DNA of 64,000 nt from an uncultured delta proteobacterium (GCA_963765435.1 CAVXWK010000002.1:1561664-1625663), one strand, 5' to 3'; positions 18,907-30,288 are shown, numbered from the stretch's first letter. The notes: generated from the sequence alone by a model not told the origin. Made by a program: numbers and translations.

Positions 18907-19048
18907 AGGGCTCGAGGGGTCTAGGATTCAAGGGTCCGAGCGAAATGTCGAAGCCCCTTTTGTCATTGAGTAACTCAATCTTTAGGACGTGATACCGGTT
19001 TGAATACCAAAGGCTTGAACCCATGAACCCTCGAATCCTTGAACCCTT
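18907..19048. repeat. MITE-like element bounded by imperfect inverted arrays of G-rich 7-8-mers
   Basis: Left arm: aagggctcgaggggtctaggattcaagggtccgag. Right arm: cttgaacccatgaaccctcgaatccttgaaccctt, whose reverse complement is aagggttcaaggattcgagggttcatgggttcaag. Confidence 0.6.
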
Positions 19049-19113
19049 TGCGACAAACCTGTTATAAACCAAGTCCAAAGAAATAGAAGAGAAGTTGGGA
19101 GGAATTACAAGTG

Positions 19114-19515
19114 ATGAAGGACCTTGTGGATGTGGATATTCGAGTGAGGTATGCCGAGACGGACCAAATGGGGGTAGCTTACTATGCCAACTACCTCGTT
19201 TGGTTTGAAGTAGGGCGGTCAGAGTTCTGCCGAGAGAGGGGATTCCGCTATGTTGATTTGGAGGCGTTGGGATACAAGCTTGTGGTCATTGACGTTCATT
19301 GCCGGTATCGGAGTTCGGCTCGATATGATGAATCGGTCATCGTACAGACTCGCTTGAAGGGAGCCAATAAGCGGTTGATCACCTTCGGGTATCAGATCCT
19401 TCGTAAAGACCGAGAGGAGGTGATTGCGGAGGGAGAGACCCAACACATCTGCGTCGATTCAAGTGGTAAAACAAAAAGCCTACCTGAAAAATTCCTGGCT
19501 ACTCTAAGCGGGTAG
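19114..19515 (+). CDS. YbgC/4HBT-family acyl-CoA thioesterase
   Basis: VRYAETDQMGVAYYANYLVWFEVGRSEF is the classic YbgC N-terminal active-site region. Confidence 0.8.
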   Translation: MKDLVDVDIRVRYAETDQMGVAYYANYLVWFEVGRSEFCRERGFRYVDLEALGYKLVVIDVHCRYRSSARYDESVIVQTRLKGANKRLITFGYQILRKDREEVIAEGETQHICVDSSGKTKSLPEKFLATLSG

Positions 19516-19591
19516 TTTCTTATTTCCAAATCTTCCGAATAATTACCAATGAGTCCATAATTGAGAAGACGTAGTTACACTACTCCGACAA

Positions 19592-19677
19592 ATCCCCATC
19601 CCCCTTTCGACCTTACCCTTGCAGGGGGAGGAATGTGGGGATTTCCCTCCCCTTCAGGAGAAGGGGAAGGGTGGGGG
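19592..19677. repeat. Two tandem REP-A palindromes
   Basis: atccccatcccc...gcagggggaggaatgtggggat followed by ttccctccccttcaggagaaggggaagggtggggg. Confidence 0.8.
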
Positions 19678-19696
19678 TAACCAGAGGTCTATTCAA

Positions 19697-20710
19697 TCAT
19701 GGACCGATTAATAAAGGATCGATGATGGCGAAGCTTCCATCCGATTCGAGGCGCAGGACTCTAAAGATAAGGGTATCATCACGGTTTTCTATCTCGCAGA
19801 AGTGGAAAAAACGAAGTTCGGGGCCGGAAAAGAGGTCTTGGTAGCGCCGCTTTCGGGGATCGATCATAACCTTGTGCCTCGGCCCACCTCCTCCCCCGGA
19901 GACAATGAAGAACTTATCTCCGATTTGAAAGCGCTCATAGGAATGACTGTGACCGCTGAAGAATAAGCGAGTCTTTTGGAACCGGAGAAAAGGGTCGGCA
20001 AAATAAACTTTGACTTTCTCGTTTGGCCCGACTACCCGGCTGTTGGTAAACGGTGGTTCGTGGCAGCAGACAATAACGAAAGCAACTTCCTTGTTCCTTT
20101 CGAATTTCTCAAGCTCGCCCAAATACCACTGAGACTGTCCCTCGATTTGTTCTTTCGTGAGGGTGGAGAAATTGGAATCAACCAGGATCAATCCCACATT
20201 CTTCCAGGTGAAACTGTACCAGCGTTTTTTATTAAGATAAGGGAAACGCTCGAAATAGTTCTGTAGCGCTTTCTCGTCATTGCCATAAAGCTCATGGTTT
20301 CCAAGGGTCGGAAAATACGGGATCTTTTTCTCACGAAATTCTTTGTGCATCTCGTCGAATTCATGCCAGTGTTTATCTGAACTGCCCCGAGTAGTAAGGT
20401 CACCGAGATGGACAACAAAGGCCGGTTCACGTTTAGTGATTTCATCAATGATTAGCTTTCGCTCCTTATCATTCCTTTCCCGCCAGAACTCCCAGTGACT
20501 TGTACTTTGTGTGTCCCCAACGATGAGGAAGCGATTTTTTGTTGCCTGGATCTCTGCAAAGCCAGCGTAGGAGGGGACTGACCGGGATTTTTGTTCCAAG
20601 GCTATTGCGCCGGCGGCCTCGGCCATTAAGAAAATACTTAACAACACTGCAAGAAGAATTGTGATTTCCATTATCAACTTCTTCATGGGTGACACACGAT
20701 TAATTTTCAC
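19697..20710 (-). CDS. Secreted calcineurin-like metallophosphoesterase
   Basis: Signal peptide present. Motifs: GDTQ, GDLTTRG, GNHE, CCHEPP, GHSHSYE. Confidence 0.8.
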   Translation of the reverse strand: MKINRVSPMKKLIMEITILLAVLLSIFLMAEAAGAIALEQKSRSVPSYAGFAEIQATKNRFLIVGDTQSTSHWEFWRERNDKERKLIIDEITKREPAFVVHLGDLTTRGSSDKHWHEFDEMHKEFREKKIPYFPTLGNHELYGNDEKALQNYFERFPYLNKKRWYSFTWKNVGLILVDSNFSTLTKEQIEGQSQWYLGELEKFERNKEVAFVIVCCHEPPFTNSRVVGPNEKVKVYFADPFLRFQKTRLFFSGHSHSYERFQIGDKFFIVSGGGGGPRHKVMIDPRKRRYQDLFSGPELRFFHFCEIENRDDTLIFRVLRLESDGSFAIIDPLLIGP

Positions 20711-20775
20711 TTTTTTATTAACCGCTCTATTTTTTGCAGAAACTTATCGAGGTCCTGATTCGCTTCCTCGTCCTT

Positions 20776-20803
20776 ACGAAGGATACCTAACGAAGGATAC
20801 CTA
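20776..20803. repeat. Perfect 2 x 14-bp tandem duplication (acgaaggataccta)
   Basis: Read directly at 20776-20789 and 20790-20803. Confidence 0.9.
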
Positions 20804-21012
20804 TTGCAATATTATCAGTACGGTGAATAGCGATTTTCCCTAAATATCCCCCTGTCGTAATGTACCGCCCGTTCACATTTTCAAATAGTACCCTAGAAAG
20901 AATGTCTTCTTCTACTCTCTCAAAAAAAATATGCACTTTTCGCAGACATAGTATTTTGGAGAACCAACTTGCACGCACGGCTGCTAAATGATATCACGGC
21001 CTTCCCCCGAAT

Positions 21013-21275
21013 TGATGGACACGCCTGAAAATTTGTATGATTGGGTAGGAGGTCCGTATGGAGGGAAGAGACGCCATTTCAGCCGTGGGTTCTAACGTCA
21101 TGCAGTGCAAATGGTTACGGAGAAAGGAATGTCGGTAGGTAAGGTGGCCAGAGAGCTTGATATTCATCCCAATCTGCTCCATCTATGGAGGAAGAAGTTG
21201 TTAGCTGAAGGGGATAGAGCTTTTGTCCGGAAGGGCCATGTCACGCCAGAGGAAGCGATAATAAAGGGGCTCCGG
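21013..21275 (+). pseudogene. IS3-family transposase orfA remnant (HTH part only, in-frame stop, 3' truncated)
   Basis: The frame beginning at 21060 reads GGKRRHFSRGF*RHAVQMVTEKGMSVGKVARELDIHPNLLHLWRKKLLAEGDRAF. This matches the IS3 OrfA pattern KRR.FS.EFK..AV.LV...G.SV..VAREL.I..N.L..W. A TAA stop lies at 21093. No orfB or DDE region follows. Confidence 0.55.
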
Positions 21276-21391
21276 ATCATCACAGCACAGACTTCTTCCT
21301 CTCTGGCCACGGTACTCTTACAACGATTAATAGTTTCTAATTTTCTGATGACTGCAATAATTCTTGACCGTTCTTTGAAATTAATAAACGG

Positions 21392-22465
21392 TTATTCAAT
21401 CAATTGTAAGATTCCTTGAAGTTTTTTATTGAGAAGTGCCGTATAATGAACACCTCCTTTGTAGGATAAGTGTAATGTATTTAGAAACTCTTCGTCGGGA
21501 ATAGATTTATATAGATCGATAAAAGAGATGCCTTCCCCTTCCAGGTGAGGTTTAAGATCGTCCTCGACCCATTTTTGATAATCCTTTCCCAGCTGCGAAG
21601 TACGGCTCCAGGATCCGCTATAGATATTCACGACGACGACATTCGTCTGGCAATGAAGTGTTTTTAGAAAGTTTTTGAAGTCTTCCGTAATCCTGCTTGG
21701 GATTTTGGCATTCCTCATGTATTGCTTCACTAGTTCTCCATAAATGCTGACGCGATTGGAGGGAAGTGTCGTATCACCATTAGTTTTTTGTATCCCTTGA
21801 AAAAGGCTTAAAATATTGCGTCGAATGTCTTTCAGGGTTTTGTAATTGACGCCGAATTGGGGGTCCGGACGACCGATACAAATTGTTGCTAAACTAAGGC
21901 GCATCTTTAAATTTCCAAGAACCCACTCTTTTCTCAAGTCGGACACGCTTCCATAGATAGTGAGATCATCGTTGACAGTATAAAAGTCAAAAAGCTCGAG
22001 ATATTGCTTCATGGGTATATCATCGGATGGCTTGTTTGCCAGGCTTGGCAATTCAATGGCGACGACCACTATATCCGTTTTGTTTAAAACATGGTTGCTG
22101 TATTTATTAAGATAATTGAGCAAAATAGGATACCCATCGGCGTTGTCGGCACGCGCAGCAAGATTTGAAAATCTCCAGCATGAAGGCAGGTGGAGTAACT
22201 CTGGAATCACTCCCACGACTGTGCTGGAGGCTCCCAACAAAATTATGTTATGGTTCTGTGCCAGGCGAAAAACATCACGGTAAAGCATATGGATTTCCCA
22301 GGGCAGTCCATTTCGTAAAGGATCCTGATAAATTCCGCCTGCAAGATATTTTTTATATTGCTCTCTGTCTATTCTCTCAAGAAATACTGTCGAGCAATAA
22401 AGAGAGATTGCATATAATATAAAAGTCACCAATATTGTTATTAATAATGGCTTGTAGGTCTTCAT
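21392..22465 (-). CDS. DltD-like extracytoplasmic acyl-transfer protein (single N-terminal TM, SGNH-like motifs)
   Basis: 357 aa with TM segment LLITILVTFILYAISLYCSTVF. ILLGASSTVVG resembles the DltD GSSE serine block. C-terminal NTLHLSYKGG resembles DltD D-T-x-H-L-G-W-K-G-W. It is the last gene of the MBOAT operon. Confidence 0.5.
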   Translation of the reverse strand: MKTYKPLLITILVTFILYAISLYCSTVFLERIDREQYKKYLAGGIYQDPLRNGLPWEIHMLYRDVFRLAQNHNIILLGASSTVVGVIPELLHLPSCWRFSNLAARADNADGYPILLNYLNKYSNHVLNKTDIVVVAIELPSLANKPSDDIPMKQYLELFDFYTVNDDLTIYGSVSDLRKEWVLGNLKMRLSLATICIGRPDPQFGVNYKTLKDIRRNILSLFQGIQKTNGDTTLPSNRVSIYGELVKQYMRNAKIPSRITEDFKNFLKTLHCQTNVVVVNIYSGSWSRTSQLGKDYQKWVEDDLKPHLEGEGISFIDLYKSIPDEEFLNTLHLSYKGGVHYTALLNKKLQGILQLIE

Positions 22466-22469
22466 GGTT

Positions 22470-22574
22470 TTAAAAATTTTGATAGAGTACGTAAAGTTTT
22501 GATTTAGAACCGAGGATGATCAGGATAACCAATATTTTTACAGAAAGCCATAGCAGACTGTACCAGTAACGCAT
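22470..22574 (-). CDS. 34-aa transmembrane micro-ORF with C-terminal VLYQNF (DltX-like acyl-shuttle microprotein candidate)
   Basis: Not in the ORF track. The plus strand reads cat at 22572-22574 (ATG on minus). GGAGG lies 6 nt upstream, directly after the MBOAT TAA. Translation: MRYWYSLLWLSVKILVILIILGSKSKLYVLYQNF*. Its stop is 4 nt before the next start. Confidence 0.45.
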   Translation of the reverse strand: MRYWYSLLWLSVKILVILIILGSKSKLYVLYQNF

Positions 22575-22585
22575 GAGACGCCTCC

Positions 22586-23791
22586 TTACGTTATTAAATT
22601 TAAAAGCGAGGTTGTCAGCTTTTTTATGTCATACTCGAAGAATAGAAAAGTAAAACAAACAAAGTGAATCGTTATCATTGTTTCAACAATGGTAACCTTT
22701 ATGTTCTTCCGATACAAATCGAACCGTTCCTTGCCCAATACCTTCAACATGGTATCCCGGTACATCATCGAAAGGGCCATGCCGGATCCATGAAGAAGGC
22801 CGAAAACGATAAAGTTGATCGTAGTCCCATGCCATACTCCGGCAACAAAAAAAGTTATAAAAATGCTGATATATTGTGCCAGATTGGGTGATTTTTTTAA
22901 ATATCCTGTAAGCAAATATTTGAAATGCGGCTGATAAAGGAAATCACGCAGCCATTCGGATAATGTAATGTGCCATCTATTCCAGAATTCGATCATGTTT
23001 CTGGCCAGGTAAGGACGATTAAAATTTTCCGGTATTGAAAATCCGGCCCATCGGGCAATCCCAATGACCACGTCACAGTATCCGGAAAAGTTGAAATAGA
23101 CATATAAAGGATAGAAATAAAATATCATCAAAAGGCCCGTCAGATGGGATTTACCCTCCAGAAGCCGATCGTACCCTGAATCAGCGATATCTTTAAAAAG
23201 AACCCCAAAAATAAGGATTTTCAGCAGTCCATTCACAGCACGGTGGAGTTGCTTTAAAATTTCGTTTTTATCGAGAAGCGGTGTCGCCTGGTAGAACGAG
23301 GAGGTAAAATCCTTGAATCTCTGAATCGGCCCCGCCATGATGGTATAGAAAGAAAAAAGGTAGTTCCCGTAGTCGATTGGGCTGAACTCTGTTAACATTC
23401 CGGCGCTGGAATGGACCATTACATCAAGCTGGCGGAACAGGATATAAGAAAGGCCGAGCGACTTGGTGAGGCGGAAGATAGACCGACCGACAATCGGCCG
23501 AATGATCCATGTGTAACCATTCAGATATATAAAAATGAATATTAGTAAAACGGTAAATGGCCATAAGGGAAGCTTCCGTCTCCGATTTCCGTAGATATAG
23601 AAGAGGGGGATCATCAGAAATATGACTATCCCGATAAGTTCCCGCCATGAATCGAGAGAGGCGGCGTATAGGACCAAACTGCAGATAAAAAAGAAGACTC
23701 CGCGGTAATGCCGCTCTTTGACCATAAAAATAAGAGGGGAGAGAAGAAGCAGTAGCAGGAACCAACCACTATCAATTGAGATTCTGATCAT
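22586..23791 (-). CDS. Membrane-bound O-acyltransferase (MBOAT; DltB/AlgI/PatA family)
   Basis: 401 aa and polytopic. Signature FWNRWHITLSEWLRDFLY and second His block FFVAGVWHGTTINFIVFGLLHG. Confidence 0.85.
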   Translation of the reverse strand: MIRISIDSGWFLLLLLLSPLIFMVKERHYRGVFFFICSLVLYAASLDSWRELIGIVIFLMIPLFYIYGNRRRKLPLWPFTVLLIFIFIYLNGYTWIIRPIVGRSIFRLTKSLGLSYILFRQLDVMVHSSAGMLTEFSPIDYGNYLFSFYTIMAGPIQRFKDFTSSFYQATPLLDKNEILKQLHRAVNGLLKILIFGVLFKDIADSGYDRLLEGKSHLTGLLMIFYFYPLYVYFNFSGYCDVVIGIARWAGFSIPENFNRPYLARNMIEFWNRWHITLSEWLRDFLYQPHFKYLLTGYLKKSPNLAQYISIFITFFVAGVWHGTTINFIVFGLLHGSGMALSMMYRDTMLKVLGKERFDLYRKNIKVTIVETMITIHFVCFTFLFFEYDIKKLTTSLLNLIT

Positions 23792-25434
23792 GAAATGCGT
23801 CTATACTCGGCGACAGCCAGACTGAACTGATTTATTAGCCTTTCTTTTCCTTCGAAACGACCAGCATTATCCTGACGCAACATTGTGTTGATGATATCTT
23901 GACAGTTTTTTATCATCTCCCAGGGGAAACCACGGTCCCTTAAATAAACAAGATACCAAAGACCCGGGTCAGGATCTACAAAGAGAGAACCATGTATTTC
24001 TTCGAACATTTTCAGCTTTAATTCGGATGCGGTCGTACTGGTCATCGTTTTATGCTTCCAGCGGTATCCTTCACCCTCGAGTCCGTATTCTGATCGTTTT
24101 TGAAAGACCGGCGCTGTGTGGAGATAATAGAACTCCTTGATCGAGAAAAAGTCAAGCTCTGTCTCCTCAATAAAGGAAACATTGCTTTGCACGGACTCTT
24201 CCGTTTCTCCAGGAAAACCAAGAATAAACATTCCAAATAGCGGGATATTGTTCTTTTTCATCATCGCGATCGTCCGCCTATAATCATCAACGCGCGCTTT
24301 CTTATTCATGTTTCTGAGCACTGTATCGCTGGCGCTTTCTAACCCTAGGTAAAGGCCGTCACATCCACTCTCTTTCATATCCCGTATAAGATTTTCATCA
24401 GCAAGCTGAGCGCGATAAAAAGCATACCACCGGAAGTCGTATTTTTTTAGGAGCGATACAATCTCTCGAAATCTGCTGACAGGAAAATTGAAGGTATCAT
24501 CCACAAAAACGATTGCTTCAACACTGTTCATATCACGGACTGCATCGAGTTGTTTCTCTATCTGTTCCATGGAACTATGATGAAAACCGTGTGCAACCGC
24601 AGGGTAGGAGCAGAACGCACACCGGAATGGGCACCCCGAGCTCGTTCGTATTTGAACTGTTTTTGAGGGGATATGATGATCGACAATGTCCTTATAGGGA
24701 AGAATCTTCGAAAGAGACGGTTTGTTCCAAACCGTCGGGGTGACCTTATATCGGCCTTCTCGATCGATATAAATAAGGTTATTAACATTGTCAAAAGTAT
24801 CCGTATCATTTTGAAGCGCTTGGGCAAAGGAAGCGATATCCGGCTCTGGGTTCAAGCTATGAAGGATACAGGAAATGCCGTATTTTCTCATGGGTTTTTC
24901 AAGGATGTCGGGCCCTTTTGTGAGGAACTGGTCGTTTACGAATGCACCGCCGAGGACAATCAAGGGATTCTGGATGTTCTCCTGGATTTTTTTTACCATC
25001 CTTCCTATCTCCGACCACTGGAGGATAAAGGTTGTAGAAATTCCTATGATCGGCAAAGACATGTGGGTGCTGTATTCGAGGAGAAGGTCCCATTCGGCAT
25101 CAAAATTATTGATTACCCTGCAGACCAATCCAGCCTCCATAAATGGGTGTATCGCAGTGATCCCATTGAGTCCAGGCATATTCCAGATACTGAAGAGAGA
25201 CCGTTTCTCTTCATATTGACCTTCATGGAAATATTTACCGAAAAGAACCTTGTTGAATAGATCCAGGTGTGAATGAAAACCGTTATCCCAATATACCATC
25301 CTGAGTTGTACCAGATTCCTGTAAAGATCGATACGATCGATGGGCATACGGCTGTATTGCTCGTACTGAACCACTTCTGACTGGGTGATCAGGATCAAAT
25401 CTATTTTTTCTGTTCCCATGATTCGTTTAGCCAT
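23788..25434 (-). CDS. B12-binding-domain radical SAM enzyme (class B-like)
   Basis: 548 aa. The N-terminal Rossmann-like region (PIIGISTTF...PLIVLGGAF) precedes SSGCPFRCAFCSYP (CX3CX2C). Its stop overlaps the MBOAT start (ATGA). Confidence 0.75.
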   Translation of the reverse strand: MAKRIMGTEKIDLILITQSEVVQYEQYSRMPIDRIDLYRNLVQLRMVYWDNGFHSHLDLFNKVLFGKYFHEGQYEEKRSLFSIWNMPGLNGITAIHPFMEAGLVCRVINNFDAEWDLLLEYSTHMSLPIIGISTTFILQWSEIGRMVKKIQENIQNPLIVLGGAFVNDQFLTKGPDILEKPMRKYGISCILHSLNPEPDIASFAQALQNDTDTFDNVNNLIYIDREGRYKVTPTVWNKPSLSKILPYKDIVDHHIPSKTVQIRTSSGCPFRCAFCSYPAVAHGFHHSSMEQIEKQLDAVRDMNSVEAIVFVDDTFNFPVSRFREIVSLLKKYDFRWYAFYRAQLADENLIRDMKESGCDGLYLGLESASDTVLRNMNKKARVDDYRRTIAMMKKNNIPLFGMFILGFPGETEESVQSNVSFIEETELDFFSIKEFYYLHTAPVFQKRSEYGLEGEGYRWKHKTMTSTTASELKLKMFEEIHGSLFVDPDPGLWYLVYLRDRGFPWEMIKNCQDIINTMLRQDNAGRFEGKERLINQFSLAVAEYRRIS

Positions 25435-25472
25435 TTTTTGAAAGACGGAGCGACATCCGATAGGAGCTATCT

Positions 25473-25718
25473 TCAGGCAAGCTTTTTGTGAATAAGGGAT
25501 ATGAATTCACCTACGTTTTTGAGCTCCATAATCTCTGCAGTTTTAAAGGTAACGCCGAACTCCTGCTCGGAGGCGACGACGAGTTGAACATGTTTCAGAG
25601 AATCCCACTCCTCAACATCTTCCGCCGTCATTTCATCAAATAATTCTATTTCTTCATTATCAAAAACATCACGGAACACATTCTGAAGGCGTGCTTTGAT
25701 TTGTGTCCGGTCTGCCAT
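25473..25718 (-). CDS. Acyl/peptidyl carrier protein
   Basis: 81 aa and acidic. The phosphopantetheine site context is EEWDSLKHVQLV (DSL). Confidence 0.8.
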   Translation of the reverse strand: MADRTQIKARLQNVFRDVFDNEEIELFDEMTAEDVEEWDSLKHVQLVVASEQEFGVTFKTAEIMELKNVGEFISLIHKKLA

Positions 25719-25720
25719 CT

Positions 25721-27592
25721 TTATCTCATTCTTTTCTTAAGTTCTATTTGATGAGGTCGATCTACAAAATCGGACACTTTCAGTCGGTAGACGATCCCGT
25801 CAGGATGGGCAAGAGCAAACCAACCGTTATTCGATCGTTCAAAGCCCAATTCCAGGTATAGATTTTTCACCAGGCTGTTTTTCTTCGTAGGAATATACTC
25901 GCCGACCATCCATTCGGATGCCCAGCTTTTTGCAGCCGCTCCTATCGCATTCAGTGCGGCATTCTCGACCCTGCGCTTGAGGACTCTGCAACTCATCACC
26001 CACGTATCAATAAAAGCGATGTCTTCGATTTTCTGAATGATGATCGACGATATGATTCCATAGCTTCCGAATTTATCTGCGAGGCTGATCGATAGGGGAA
26101 ACCATTCCTCCGGGTCTTCCCGCATCTGCTCCACCGCGGCCTCTGTATAGCGTTTCGTACGTAGGTTGAATTGATTGCTTTTGTTGATGAGTTGGGTAAA
26201 ACGCGGAGATTCCATGGATGAAATGAGACTAATTTCCCCTTTCATTTCCAGAGACTTGAGGTAAGAGTCATAATCGGCACAACTGACAGCAAGCTCCTGC
26301 CGCTTCTTGTCCATGATATAGGAGTCCGACCGTCTCATGTCTTCCTTGCTCAATTGAACCCATTCGAAACTACACGATCTTTCAAGAGCTCTCACAAACA
26401 GGGCGGGATCTTCCGGCACCTCGACAATCTCCACTTCGGGGAGAACCTGTCGAATAATCTCACGTTCGGCAGGATTGTCGTCGAAGAAGACAAGAGAATC
26501 GAGACCAATATTCAGTCTGTTTGCAATCTCTCTGAGGTTGCTCGCTTTATCGTTCCAGTTAGCCATAAAACAGGCGACATCATCGATTTTCAAAATCATA
26601 TCCGGGTGCTGTTCAAAAGGTGTCCTTGCGATTTCTTCATCGTTCTTGCTGCAGACCGCAACGATCACGCCTCTTTCCTTCAGTGTTTTAATGTACTTCT
26701 GAAAAGCGATATAAGCTTCACCCAGGGCATCGTTGGGACTCATATTAATTCCCTCAAGTCCATCATCACCGATAACCCCTCCCCACAATGTATTATCAAG
26801 ATCGAGCACAAGGCACTTTTTTGCTTTTCCTGCTTGCGATGCAATAAGACGAGAGATTGTATGGGCAACAAGCGATGCTGCGTCAAAGGAAAATCCTTGT
26901 TTACTCATAAAGTAATTCACGTCATCGAACCAACGGTACTTCCCGAAAGCCGAAGCGAGGTAGTCCATATCAATGTATGTCACATAAGGAGGTTTTTGAC
27001 GGATCAGTTCTATATTGAGAGCCCGAAGACAACTGGATGCCGAAAAGGGGTAGTTTCCTTCCAGGTTGCCCAGTTGACGGTAAAGGGGTAATATGAACAA
27101 GGTTTGGAAGATATGGCAGCCTTTTATTTTGGCGGCATTCTTCCAAATCCCCTGATAGTGTTGAACTTTTGCACCAATCCATCTATGAATCTCCTCTTCG
27201 GAAGCAAAGAGTTCAGGATAGTCTTTAATATCATTGTGGTGGGTCAAGATCAGGAGGATTTCCGGTTGGAAAGAAAATATTTGCGAATTCGGATCCATCA
27301 GCTCCGCAGTAATCGCATCATATTCTCCCTCGTAAAAAACCGGTGCGATGCCGTACCGATAGAGAAATAGTTTAAAAATACCTACATAGTGATGCGTGGT
27401 AAACGACCCCAGGATCCCGATCTTTTTTTTAACTAAAGTGCCGGAGTGTTTTTCGTAGAAAGTCTTTTCGACTTTGTTGAATTTGGAAGCAAGAGAAAGA
27501 AGTTCGCTTCCAGTCATGGAGAGCATTTTCTCTGATGTAAACAAATCCTCGAATAACTTTAGTCTTTCTTTTCCCTTGTGGGTTGTTTCCAT
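25721..27592 (-). CDS. FkbH-like protein (HAD-IIIC phosphatase domain + C-terminal acyltransferase-like domain)
   Basis: LVLDLDNTLWGGVIGDDGLEGI (DxDxT with the FkbH-typical LWGG), AVCSKNDE and FFDDNPAERE. The ATG at 27592 overlaps the MaoC stop (TAATG). An alternative upstream ATG lies at 27613. Confidence 0.8.
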   Translation of the reverse strand: METTHKGKERLKLFEDLFTSEKMLSMTGSELLSLASKFNKVEKTFYEKHSGTLVKKKIGILGSFTTHHYVGIFKLFLYRYGIAPVFYEGEYDAITAELMDPNSQIFSFQPEILLILTHHNDIKDYPELFASEEEIHRWIGAKVQHYQGIWKNAAKIKGCHIFQTLFILPLYRQLGNLEGNYPFSASSCLRALNIELIRQKPPYVTYIDMDYLASAFGKYRWFDDVNYFMSKQGFSFDAASLVAHTISRLIASQAGKAKKCLVLDLDNTLWGGVIGDDGLEGINMSPNDALGEAYIAFQKYIKTLKERGVIVAVCSKNDEEIARTPFEQHPDMILKIDDVACFMANWNDKASNLREIANRLNIGLDSLVFFDDNPAEREIIRQVLPEVEIVEVPEDPALFVRALERSCSFEWVQLSKEDMRRSDSYIMDKKRQELAVSCADYDSYLKSLEMKGEISLISSMESPRFTQLINKSNQFNLRTKRYTEAAVEQMREDPEEWFPLSISLADKFGSYGIISSIIIQKIEDIAFIDTWVMSCRVLKRRVENAALNAIGAAAKSWASEWMVGEYIPTKKNSLVKNLYLELGFERSNNGWFALAHPDGIVYRLKVSDFVDRPHQIELKKRMR

Positions 27593-28008
27593 TACAAACA
27601 CTTGACCTGACATTTACCTGAGGCGATGCTTTCCCCTGTTATATTGGAAAATTCCAGGGCGAGTTCGATCACCCTGACTGAAACGCTTATCGCAACGACC
27701 GTTGCGGTCAGTTGAATGGTGTCTCCGATATAAACGGGTTTTTCAAAATCGAACCTTTCAGAAAGAAGCATTACTTCCTGATGGCCCAAATCCATGCCGA
27801 CCAAAGTGGAGAGGAGCATTCCATAAATATTCCCATAGACCACGCGGCTCTTAAACCCTTTTCCCCGGGCATATTGATCATCGACATGAAGAGGATTAAA
27901 ATCGCCCGAAAGCCTTCCATACCGTTCCAGAAGTTCGGATGTGATCGCAAGGGTTCTGGTAAACTTTTCCCCCCTGGAAAATAAATTGAGTGGATCTCCG
28001 CTATTCAT
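27592..28008 (-). CDS. MaoC-like (R)-hydratase/dehydratase hotdog protein
   Basis: 138 aa. LSGDFNPLHVDDQYA is the MaoC hydratase motif. Confidence 0.8.
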   Translation of the reverse strand: MNSGDPLNLFSRGEKFTRTLAITSELLERYGRLSGDFNPLHVDDQYARGKGFKSRVVYGNIYGMLLSTLVGMDLGHQEVMLLSERFDFEKPVYIGDTIQLTATVVAISVSVRVIELALEFSNITGESIASGKCQVKCL

Positions 28009-28142
28009 CTAATTTATCGTTTATCGAACAAAAGGGATCAGGCATTTTAATCGAAGTATTTCATCTTCAATCACAGCCATCTTGCATGGATCAACATTGT
28101 TCTGCCACGCTTTTTTAAAAGATTTTCCTATAAGATTTTTTT

Positions 28143-28171
28143 AATATAAAAAAAAGGGGGTTCCTTGTCAA
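28143..28171 (-). promoter_or_regulatory. Near-consensus sigma-70 promoter for the MaoC-to-DltD-like operon
   Basis: The minus strand reads TTGACA (28171-28166), a 17-nt spacer aggaacccccttttttt, then TATATT (28148-28143). It lies about 135 nt upstream of the 28008 start. Confidence 0.55.
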
Positions 28172-28227
28172 GCAAGGGCAGGAGTCACATCTCTTTTGAA
28201 TATTAATACAAACGCGGTAATTCTTTC

Positions 28228-28340
28228 TCCACACCCCCTGAGTGCCCCTTCACCTCAACCTCTCTCCCCTGCCTACGGCAGGCAATGGGGACAGGGAGAT
28301 GGCAGAGAGGCGGCCCCTTCCTTGAAGCAGAGGGGTGGCT
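28228..28340. repeat. REP-A cluster in the divergent intergenic region
   Basis: Contains ctctcccctgcctacggcaggcaatggggacagggagatggcagagagg and flanking ccccttc/gaagcagagggg arms. Confidence 0.7.
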
Positions 28341-28438
28341 ATGGGATAGCGGGGTTCTGTTTTGAATTTGGCAGTTATTTCGCAATGTTCTTGTATTTAC
28401 CATTGAAAATTAACGGGTAATAGGGTAATGTTTCAGAA

Positions 28439-29551
28439 ATGGATTCCCAAAAAATTTTAGTTTTGAGGCTGAGTGCGGTGGGGGATGTCATCCGGACGCT
28501 GCCTGCGGTAAAAGCGTTAAAAGAGCACAGGCCTTCCTCCTTTATCACCTGGATCGTCGAAGAACCCTCTCGAGCTCTCCTGGAAAGTCAACCAGAGGTC
28601 GATGAGGTGATCCTATTTCCAAGGAAAAGGTGGACCAGAGGAATAAAATCGCTAAAGGGGATATGGGCTACCTTCGGGGAAATGCGGGGATTTGTCAAAG
28701 ACCTTCGGAGGCGAAAGTTTGACATCGTTCTCGATTTTCACGGGATTCTCAAAAGCGGTGTTCTCTCTTTTCTTTCAGGCTCCCCCAAGAGGATTGGATA
28801 CGATCGAAGGTCGACCAAGGAGGGGAATTTCCTATTTTCAAACGTAAAAGCGATGCTCCCGCAGCATAAGGTCAGTCGGTTTCAAAGAAATCTTGCACTT
28901 CTCAAGGGAATGGGAGTGGAAGTGGAAGGATCTAAATATCGCCTTCATATCCCGCCAGAGGATCGGGAATATATGGGGTCATTTTTTAAGGCATCATCAG
29001 CATTCGTTAATAGACCTTTGATTGCGATCCATCCGGGGACGAGCCAAAAGGCTTTCTTTAAGCGATGGATGCCTGATCAGTATGCCCAATTGGCGGATCG
29101 ATTGGTCCGAGAACTTAATGCCTCCGTTCTTTTTACCTGGGGAGATGAGGAATTGGGATGGGTGGAAAGTATTCGAAAACAGATGAAAGAACCGTCTCTT
29201 CTGGCGCCCAAAACCGAATCTTTGACACAACTGGGGGAGCTATACAGAAACTGCGATCTTTATATCGGAGGTGACACTGGACCGATGCATATTGCTTCCC
29301 TCATGGGAATCCCTGCCGTCGTCATTTATGGACCGACAGACCCGATCGAAAATGAGCCTTTTGGGAACCACATCAAAGTGAGAAAAGAAGTGGGGTGCAG
29401 CCCGTGTCACGAGTATTCCTGTAAAAAACTTGACTGTATCAGAGCCGTCTCAGCCAACGAAGTTTTTAAGGCGACGAAAGAGATTTTAGGCATCTTGCCA
29501 AGCTCGGAACCTATGAGAGATAAAAAGAGAGACCTCGAATGTCGCTCATAA
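28439..29551 (+). CDS. ADP-heptose:LPS heptosyltransferase (GT9)
   Basis: ILVLRLSAVGDVIRTLPAVKALKE at the N-terminus and GGDTGPMHIA near the C-terminus are GT9 hallmarks. Confidence 0.85.
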   Translation: MDSQKILVLRLSAVGDVIRTLPAVKALKEHRPSSFITWIVEEPSRALLESQPEVDEVILFPRKRWTRGIKSLKGIWATFGEMRGFVKDLRRRKFDIVLDFHGILKSGVLSFLSGSPKRIGYDRRSTKEGNFLFSNVKAMLPQHKVSRFQRNLALLKGMGVEVEGSKYRLHIPPEDREYMGSFFKASSAFVNRPLIAIHPGTSQKAFFKRWMPDQYAQLADRLVRELNASVLFTWGDEELGWVESIRKQMKEPSLLAPKTESLTQLGELYRNCDLYIGGDTGPMHIASLMGIPAVVIYGPTDPIENEPFGNHIKVRKEVGCSPCHEYSCKKLDCIRAVSANEVFKATKEILGILPSSEPMRDKKRDLECRS

Positions 29552-30288
29552 AGAATATGGCTGCATTCAAGAATTGGTATATGCTTTATGCAGGACGTTA
29601 TGGATTTCTGCATAAGGAGATTGAGTTGATACATCGAAGTGGTTTAAGAATCAGGTTGCGGCCGAATACGGATGATTTGAGAATTGTAAAATCGAATTTT
29701 GTCAAGAAAAACTATACAAAGGATTTTGTCCCAATCACAAAAGACTCCATTGTTGTCGATGTGGGAGCCCACATCGGATCCTTCTCTATCATGGTTGCAA
29801 GAAATGCTTACAAGGTGCTCGCTTTTGAGCCGGAGCCGACGAATTATCAAATGCTCAAGAAAAATGTGGAGCTAAACCACCTGGAGAATATGTCTATCTT
29901 TGCGATGGCGGTTTCTGGTAGAACTGGACATCAAGATATTTATACCTATCAAGGTGGCTCTTCGGCTGATTATTCCCTGTACGAAAGGGGGATCACGAAT
30001 ATTAAGGCGGGACGTATTCCCACGATTTCGGTCGAAGACATCTTCAAGCGAGAGGGTCTACCCCGAATTGATTTCCTGAAGCTGGATTGCGAAGGCGCTG
30101 AACATGATATCCTGAAGAATATGCGTTTGGAAACTGCCACTAAAATAATGGGAATGGCTATGGAAACGCATCGTGTCCCGTCGGAATTCTCCATCGATAT
30201 TCCTTTGAGACTTAAAGAATTGGGTTTTGAAATTAGAATGAACGGCAGCGGTGGGTATATCTATGCCAAGCGAACGCATCCAAAGTGA
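29539..30288 (+). CDS. FkbM-family SAM-dependent methyltransferase
   Basis: VVDVGAHIGSFS, AFEPEPTNYQML and IDFLKLDCEGAEHDIL. Confidence 0.8.
   Translation: MSLIKNMAAFKNWYMLYAGRYGFLHKEIELIHRSGLRIRLRPNTDDLRIVKSNFVKKNYTKDFVPITKDSIVVDVGAHIGSFSIMVARNAYKVLAFEPEPTNYQMLKKNVELNHLENMSIFAMAVSGRTGHQDIYTYQGGSSADYSLYERGITNIKAGRIPTISVEDIFKREGLPRIDFLKLDCEGAEHDILKNMRLETATKIMGMAMETHRVPSEFSIDIPLRLKELGFEIRMNGSGGYIYAKRTHPK

Follow-up and report, generated by a model that had tools for sequence, protein, structure and literature searches.

A candidate cassette for building and tailoring a carrier-bound acyl group in a surface-glycan locus of an uncultured delta proteobacterium

A cassette conserved across glycan loci

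The window analysed in this work is a 64,000-nucleotide stretch of DNA from an uncultured delta proteobacterium (GCA_963765435.1, CAVXWK010000002.1:1561664-1625663). Its minus strand carries, at 23788-28008 as placed by a first-pass annotation made from the sequence alone, a set of four genes encoding a MaoC-type hydratase/dehydratase, an FkbH-type loader, an acyl carrier protein (ACP) and a B12-type radical S-adenosylmethionine (SAM) enzyme, hereafter rSAM. We propose that these genes form a cassette that builds and tailors an acyl group destined for a surface glycan. A glyceryl group would be loaded onto the ACP, dehydrated, methylated and transferred, and sequence comparisons make this reading moderately probable. 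That the substituent is a non-standard one and is tailored on the carrier appears well supported by the comparison of homologous loci. A more specific version is offered tentatively, namely that a cobalamin-dependent radical SAM C-methyltransferase and MaoC would act together on an ACP-tethered, glycerate-derived C3 unit to give a 2-oxo or 2-hydroxy glycan acyl decoration of four or more carbons, of a kind not known before. The domain identities given in the first-pass annotation were borne out, the motifs SGDFNPLHVD in MaoC, DLDNTLWGG in FkbH, DSL in the ACP and CPFRCAFC in rSAM all being present and each of the four proteins giving a family match.

Loci encoding an rSAM 40-60% identical to that of the window were sampled from metagenome and genome assemblies, and 19 of these had enough flanking sequence to be judged. 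MaoC and FkbH genes were found within a few kb of the rSAM gene in 18 of the 19, in at least six gene orders, accompanied by a small ACP wherever gene calls or BLAST detected one. On the shorter contigs L100, L102, L103 and L105, MaoC directly adjoins rSAM. In contrast to this constant gene set, the transferase changes from locus to locus, being an MBOAT protein in 11, an aminoglycoside-N-acetyltransferase-like protein (Antibiotic_NAT, PF02522, here NAT) in four and a left-handed-helix acyltransferase (LbH) in one, with no clear type in the remainder. Even related rSAMs are accompanied by different transferases, as those of the window and L107 (MBOAT) group with those of P0004/L009 (NAT), and that of P0027 (MBOAT) groups with that of P0082 (NAT) in the rSAM tree. 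The glycan context also varies, with NeuB and CMP-nonulosonate synthetase genes in L010, L094, L101, L137 and L138, a Wzz/GT4 exopolysaccharide context in L139 and lipopolysaccharide (LPS) core genes in the window.

The carrier-bound acyl group is thus the only element common to the loci and so the likely substrate, which suggests that MaoC and rSAM act on the ACP before transfer and agrees with the earlier proposal that they tailor a carrier-bound acyl group and not the glycan. Judged from gene neighbourhoods, the four genes are one unit. The cassette is widespread, occurring in many phyla and with at least three kinds of transferase; the names of the cluster members gave little taxonomy beyond Nitrospirota and Desulfobulbus. 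The first-pass annotation had also taken this combination of genes as typical of natural-product tailoring and not of the cell envelope. This part had to be abandoned, since every cassette recovered lay in a glycan locus, marked by NeuB/CMP-nonulosonate, Wzz/GT4 or heptosyltransferase genes, and none stood beside polyketide synthase (PKS) or nonribosomal peptide synthetase genes.

Within the cassette, rSAM is an add-on that is dispensable in one natural variant. In L122, from genome G247 of the same phylum (97% complete), genes for MaoC, FkbH, ACP, MBOAT, a micro-open reading frame (micro-ORF) and a 357-aa protein follow one another in that order, the first five products being 57-70% identical to those of the window and the sixth 38% identical. 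The 265 bp between the ACP and MBOAT genes hold no remnant of rSAM, and no orthologue was found elsewhere in G247. Other FkbH-ACP loci in the phylum either lack both tailoring genes or have unrelated radical SAM genes. The distribution therefore appears nested, with an FkbH-ACP core, MaoC (with or without a ketoreductase, KR) as a common addition and the PhpK-like rSAM as a further addition, nearly always together with MaoC. The MaoC of the rSAM-less L122 is 59% identical to that of the window, compared with 55% for the MaoC of the rSAM-containing L107, and these similar values weakly suggest that MaoC has the same substrate in both, with rSAM acting after it.

The enzymes of the cassette

The best NCBIfam match of rSAM was the PhpK family, TIGR04479, at 359 bits (358.7; residues 43-517), which does not reach the cut-off of 600, and the next scores were those of HpnJ (99), the B12 lipid rSAM model (98.5), AprD4 (67) and BchE (57). 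Members passing the cut-off were found in eight Streptomyces genomes, with scores of 607-759 bits, and the window protein was 28-34% identical to the six true Streptomyces members compared. In a maximum-likelihood tree, the window family formed one clade (100/99) adjoining a PhpK clade (100/100) made up of the true PhpK members and one Acidobacteriota sequence; the two clades together were set apart from the remaining B12 radical SAM genes in the sample, and the window protein fell outside the clade of cut-off-passing members. Neither the scores nor the tree placed it with a non-methylating family such as HpnJ, AprD4 or BchE, in keeping with the methylating role first suggested for it. Taken together, rSAM is probably a C-methyltransferase of a sister clade to the PhpK family. 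Some homologues at JGI carry the labels 'p-methyltransferase' and 'Mg-protoporphyrin cyclase', and a scan of genome contigs with the family alignment, which picks generic radical SAM peptide patterns, returned nearly all distant relatives, the best of them 30% identical. At 2.6 kb from the Acidobacteriota sequence inside the PhpK clade (L013:9998-15361) is an FkbH-like ORF whose similarity to FkbH is confined to the HAD and acyl-transfer part, so that further FkbH-linked enzymes may belong to the 'PhpK family'.

A structure of rSAM predicted from 33 homologues (predicted local distance difference test 90, predicted template-modelling score 0.90) had cobalamin-type radical SAM enzymes as all of its best fold matches, namely TsrM, MgmA, AprD4, OxsB, TokK and CysS, with E values of 4e-15 to 2e-14 for the CysS and TokK/ThnK folds. 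The titles of the structure entries indicate that the TokK and CysS crystals contained pantetheinylated substrates. Across 33 sequences the invariant residues include C268, C272 and C275 of the CxxxCxxC motif, Y277 and G162-G163; together with the Rossmann-domain invariants S133/T135/L138, the glycine pair resembles the SxL...GG signature. The Pfam B12-binding domain PF02310 matched 33 of the 33 aligned family members at E <= 1 (best 3.7e-11), and the match of the window protein itself was weak (E 0.073, 13 bits, residues 102-167). The invariant Tyr277, two positions past the last cluster cysteine, occupies the place of the TokK tryptophan that stacks between cluster and cobalamin, and PhpK requires methylcobalamin (PMC9204698). 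These relationships and the predicted fold suggest that rSAM may bind cobalamin and transfer a methyl group. When rSAM and the ACP, both supplied as alignments, were predicted as a complex, the score was 0.54 and one unrelated control reached 0.44, a result that speaks neither for nor against binding.

The genome was analysed for genes of cobalamin uptake or biosynthesis, either of which the first-pass annotation had raised as relevant, and uptake and salvage could be traced while de novo synthesis could not. On contig 1 (2551791-2556156) a cobalamin riboswitch (67 bits) is followed by genes for a BtuB-like TonB-dependent receptor, CobU and CobS, and CbiC, CbiD and CobD/CbiB were not found in this 95.8%-complete genome. 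The host thus probably imports and remodels corrinoids, which would suffice for this rSAM and for other B12 radical SAM enzymes, of which the genome encodes several.

The FkbH protein has the attributes of a glyceryl-ACP loader in its TIGR01686 score, the DxDxT motif of its HAD domain and the cysteine of its acyl-transfer domain, and it also matches FkbH_N (PF21211). The DxDxT aspartates were kept in all 23 homologues, as was the cysteine of an SCR motif, which we take to be the catalytic one. In the ACP, W38, D39, S40 and L41 were invariant among 11 cassette proteins. The MaoC protein belongs to PF01575 by score and by its catalytic residues when aligned with PhaJ (5cpg), the aspartate and histidine of the D-x-N-P-x-H motif being kept in 20 of 20 cassette homologues. 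Among solved structures it came closest to human 3-hydroxyacyl-thioester dehydratase 2 (3ir3) and to two short-chain (R)-enoyl-CoA hydratases of the PhaJ type, 5cpg and 1iq6.

Glyceryl-S-ACP is a 3-hydroxyacyl thioester, and loss of the 3-hydroxyl gives the enol of a pyruvoyl thioester. That MaoC acts on such a carrier-bound 2,3-dihydroxyacyl thioester is suggested indirectly by fusions of MaoC with a short-chain dehydrogenase/reductase (SDR) or KR, which adjoin FkbH in L106, L125 and L128; L106 also has an rSAM of the window family at 56% identity. These fusions match the dehydratase-ketoreductase (DH-KR) proteins reported to convert glyceryl-S-ACP to lactyl-S-ACP in polyketide pathways (PMC4765723) and thereby lend weight to the dehydration proposed in the first-pass annotation. 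A domain search found no SDR or KR among the window operon proteins. In four same-genus loci (L005, L006, L007 and L008), another B12-type rSAM, 30-33% identical over the core only, adjoins an ORF with a MaoC-like motif, a pairing that is separate from the window cassette.

Proposed pathway and its alternatives

In the pathway that we propose, FkbH would move a C3 unit from 1,3-bisphosphoglycerate to the dedicated ACP to give glyceryl-S-ACP, as its family membership suggests. MaoC would then take off the 3-hydroxyl to leave an enol-pyruvoyl or pyruvoyl thioester, a step to which its motifs and the MaoC-SDR fusions of other loci point, and rSAM, given its relatives and fold, would add at least one methyl group to the carrier-bound acyl chain. 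Finally, the acyl group would pass to the DltB-like MBOAT, the DltX-like peptide and the 357-aa protein for esterification of an exported polymer, which is probably LPS or another glycan because of the flanking heptosyltransferase genes. In an alternative order, the hydroxymethyl carbon of the glyceryl group would be methylated first and dehydration would follow; Fom3 and GenK methylate hydroxymethyl carbons. A single methyl group added at C3, before or after dehydration, would in either case lead to a 2-oxobutanoyl thioester, and 2-oxobutanoyl-ACP is accordingly our best guess for the product, made with low confidence.

Several observations weigh against this pathway. As the operon of the window has no ketoreductase, the predicted product is an alpha-keto thioester, which would be unusual and reactive for polymer esterification. 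Alpha-keto acids are usually C-methylated by ordinary SAM enzymes, so that the need for a radical enzyme after dehydration is not obvious, an argument for the order in which the glyceryl hydroxymethyl carbon is methylated first. The B12-domain score of the window rSAM is itself below threshold, AprD4 shows that a B12-type domain can exist without cobalamin, and the relationship to PhpK extends to low sequence identity only. Since genes for de novo corrin synthesis were not found, rSAM activity would depend on imported corrinoids. Lastly, the single exception among the 19 loci, L012, has rSAM with an ACP but without FkbH or MaoC. In that locus (L012:7132-9892) rSAM is followed by an ACP homologue of 49% identity, a 2OG-Fe(II) oxygenase gene lies upstream, and the carrier may be loaded differently.

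In a first alternative, rSAM would be a non-methylating class B-like enzyme acting on glyceryl-ACP, for example a radical 1,2-diol dehydratase or an enzyme of rearrangement, and MaoC would process its product or an alternative intermediate. In its favour, glyceryl-ACP is a 1,2-diol, and the radical diol dehydratase AprD4, which has a B12-like domain, ranks among the best matches by both sequence and fold. In addition, the B12-domain score of the window protein is weak, and the class B members OxsB, BchE and HpnJ do not methylate (PMC9204698). However, the AprD4 model reached 67 bits where that of the methylating PhpK family reached 359, and the window family is a clade adjoining the true PhpK members. 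Moreover, MaoC would be superfluous next to a second dehydratase, but it lies beside rSAM in 18 of the 19 loci, and we thus regard this explanation as unlikely. A shade less likely again is that rSAM methylates a sugar acceptor or glycan precursor and not the acyl-ACP, and is linked to the cassette only through the common polymer. Class B enzymes such as GenK methylate sugars, all of the loci are glycan loci, and the L012 homologue does without FkbH and MaoC. Against this, the loci differ in glycan context (nonulosonic acid, exopolysaccharide or LPS core), in the type of transferase and hence in whether N or O is the acceptor atom, yet rSAM stays by MaoC, FkbH and ACP, and even L012 retains its adjacent ACP homologue.

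It is improbable that MaoC has a role other than glyceryl-ACP dehydration, whether in hydrating another enoyl thioester, in proofreading or thioester hydrolysis, or as a structural partner of rSAM. Hot-dog proteins do include thioesterases and MaoC most often directly adjoins rSAM, but the hydratase Asp/His motif is kept throughout the 20 homologues, MaoC-SDR fusions occur beside FkbH, and retention of MaoC in the rSAM-less L122 indicates that it is not there solely to serve rSAM. Most remote is the idea of a genuine PhpK-type P-methyltransferase whose target would be a phosphinate or phosphonate decoration, an identity to which the best NCBIfam model of rSAM and the 'p-methyltransferase' label of some homologues would point. 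Like the PhpK/BcpD P-methyltransferases of TIGR04479, rSAM has a CxxxCxxC core, a C-terminal domain and a putative N-terminal B12-type domain, matches the model over nearly its full length and belongs to a neighbouring clade. Unlike them, it is encoded in a genome with no sign of a phosphonate pathway and in an FkbH-ACP-MaoC glycan context, where the likely target is carbon and not phosphorus. Phosphoenolpyruvate (PEP) mutase (TIGR02320) had no match in the 95.8%-complete genome of the window, and none was listed for the nine homologous loci for which gene calls exist. A score far under the cut-off, the separate clade from the cut-off-passing Streptomyces members and the missing PEP mutase led us to reject this identity and to view rSAM, by context, as a PhpK relative that is not a P-methyltransferase.

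Each component of the pathway that we favour, from FkbH loading and glyceryl-ACP dehydration to class B methylation of tethered substrates and a Dlt-type MBOAT relay, has a precedent. Bryostatin BryA is of the DH-KR-FkbH-ACP type. The lactate-starter systems of the same architecture (FR901464, lankacidin) resemble the cassette in their FkbH-loaded glyceryl-S-ACP and carrier-bound hot-dog dehydration (PMC4765723), and the dehydratase-SDR/KR fusions of L106, L125 and L128 extend the likeness. In contrast, the window operon has a free-standing MaoC in place of a PKS domain, no ketoreductase and an extra radical SAM step, and it has a glycan-acylating transferase where those systems have a downstream PKS. 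For the methylation, class B enzymes such as CysS and TokK/ThnK act on thioester- or pantetheine-bound small molecules, some of them iteratively (PMC9204698). The predicted fold of the window rSAM matches theirs, and its invariant Tyr277 after the cysteine loop stands where TokK has Trp, but they are only 13-17% identical to it, lie in a different region of the sequence-similarity network and serve antibiotic pathways.

The proposed relay of an acyl group from a carrier protein to an MBOAT with a micro-protein and an extracytoplasmic transferase resembles that of the Dlt pathway (DltA, DltC, DltB, DltX and DltD), by which teichoic acids are D-alanylated. The window differs in that its loader is FkbH and no DltA-type ligase is present, the operon proteins having no match to the AMP-binding family, and in that the acyl group would be a tailored glycerate derivative and not D-alanine, in a Gram-negative, LPS-type locus.

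A further likeness concerns the NAT-type cassettes. An aminopeptidase-like gene of the DUF4910/DUF2172 type recurs in L009, L010, L137 and the P0067 locus, in the first three together with a gene of the LIC12162 family (PF27859). Two FkbH-ACP loci with no NAT match, L126 and L127, have DUF4910-like ORFs as well. In L009, a DDE transposase gene (L009:3844-5394) interrupts the cassette, with a SPASM radical SAM gene on one side and FkbH on the other, and separates MaoC-NAT from FkbH-ACP-rSAM. The DUF4910 protein of the NAT-type cassettes resembles the description of Cj1295 from Campylobacter jejuni, which we presume to be of the DUF4910 family. In C. jejuni NCTC 11168, the flagellin glycan includes a surface nonulosonic acid whose acyl group derives from glycerate, 5-N-(2,3-di-O-methylglyceroyl) pseudaminic acid. 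Aminopeptidase-like Cj1295 is required for the di-O-methylglyceroyl modification of pseudaminic acid (PMC3068675), and the locus holds an FkbH-domain gene, cj1302 (PMC7099621). However, neither a MaoC nor a B12 radical SAM gene is reported there, and the group is N-linked and O-methylated. In the literature, we found no work that connects FkbH to both MaoC and a radical SAM enzyme, none that connects it to polysaccharide acylation or MBOAT/DltB, and none that joins cobalamin radical SAM, ACP, glycan and PhpK.

Recognition by phages, the immune system and antimicrobials is influenced by the small acyl groups that LPS, capsules and flagellin sugars carry, and the known routes of glycan acylation draw on acetyl-CoA, D-alanine or amino acids. 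To these the cassette would add a carrier-protein route to a tailored, methylated acid derived from a C3 unit. If our proposal is correct, no class B radical SAM enzyme before rSAM would have been assigned to acylation of the cell envelope, and a substrate hypothesis would be available for a large B12 radical SAM clade whose members are now mislabelled. The surface chemistry of a corrinoid auxotroph would then depend on B12 supplied by its community, so that the decoration could report cofactor cross-feeding, and the rSAM-less cassette of G247 offers a natural comparison.

Operon layout and genomic setting

The four genes belong to a longer minus-strand operon that spans 21392-28171 and runs from MaoC through FkbH, ACP, rSAM, MBOAT and the micro-ORF to the 357-aa protein (Table 1). 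The MBOAT gene and those after it lie beyond the four-gene set as first annotated. The MBOAT protein scored below the DltB cut-off, and homologues of the 357-aa protein follow MBOAT in L107 (35% identity) as well as in L122.

Table 1. Features of the cassette operon, with positions counted from the first letter of the window
Feature	Position	Strand	Evidence
Promoter-like site (TTGACA, 17 nt, TATATT)	28143..28171	-	11/12 consensus positions
MaoC-type (R)-specific hydratase/dehydratase, 138 aa, single hot-dog	27592..28008	-	PF01575 E 1.6e-15, 57 bits (cut-off 27)
FkbH-type loader (HAD phosphatase and acyl-transfer domain), 630 aa	25721..27613	-	TIGR01686 E 2e-87, 293 bits (cut-off 147)
Dedicated ACP, 81 aa	25473..25718	-	PF00550 25 bits (cut-off 20.8); WDSL, phosphopantetheine serine Ser40
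Cobalamin-type (class B) radical SAM enzyme, 548 aa	23788..25434	-	PF04055 E 5e-25; CPFRCAFC
DltB-like MBOAT	22586..23791	-	PF03062 E 1.6e-18; TIGR04091 DltB 202 bits (cut-off 375, not reached)
DltX-like micro-ORF, 34 codons	22470..22574	-	homologues at the same position in L107 and L122, 59-61% identity
357-aa protein, DltD position	21392..22465	-	no family match (Pfam, NCBIfam)

The tight junctions indicate that the set is packed as an operon. FkbH and ACP are 2 nt apart, ACP and rSAM 38 nt, and the rSAM stop overlaps the MBOAT start as ATGA. The start of FkbH is ambiguous. The ATG that comes first in frame (27613) falls within MaoC, and the second, at 27592, would give a protein of 623 aa and overlaps the MaoC stop as TAATG, an arrangement that would give translational coupling. 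The promoter-like site, about 135 nt upstream of the MaoC start, lies in the divergent gap shared with a heptosyltransferase gene; it is the best in the region, but as the overall count of such sites was not above that in shuffled sequence it serves as a hint on placement only. Across this gap from the operon stand the heptosyltransferase (GT9) and an FkbM-methyltransferase gene. A metallophosphoesterase gene (19697-20710) was considered as a member of the unit and rejected on account of a 680-bp gap to the operon and its failure to recur in the homologous loci.

No Rfam RNA family was found in 19000-29000, and a plasmid search with the rSAM protein gave no match. Within 20000-30000, the G+C content drops to 0.41-0.45 across the cassette, compared with about 0.49 in the adjacent 2-kb windows, and a search of 14 same-genus genomes turned up neither rSAM nor FkbH. 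Given this lower G+C content and the failure to find either gene in those relatives, the cassette looks like a horizontally acquired island.

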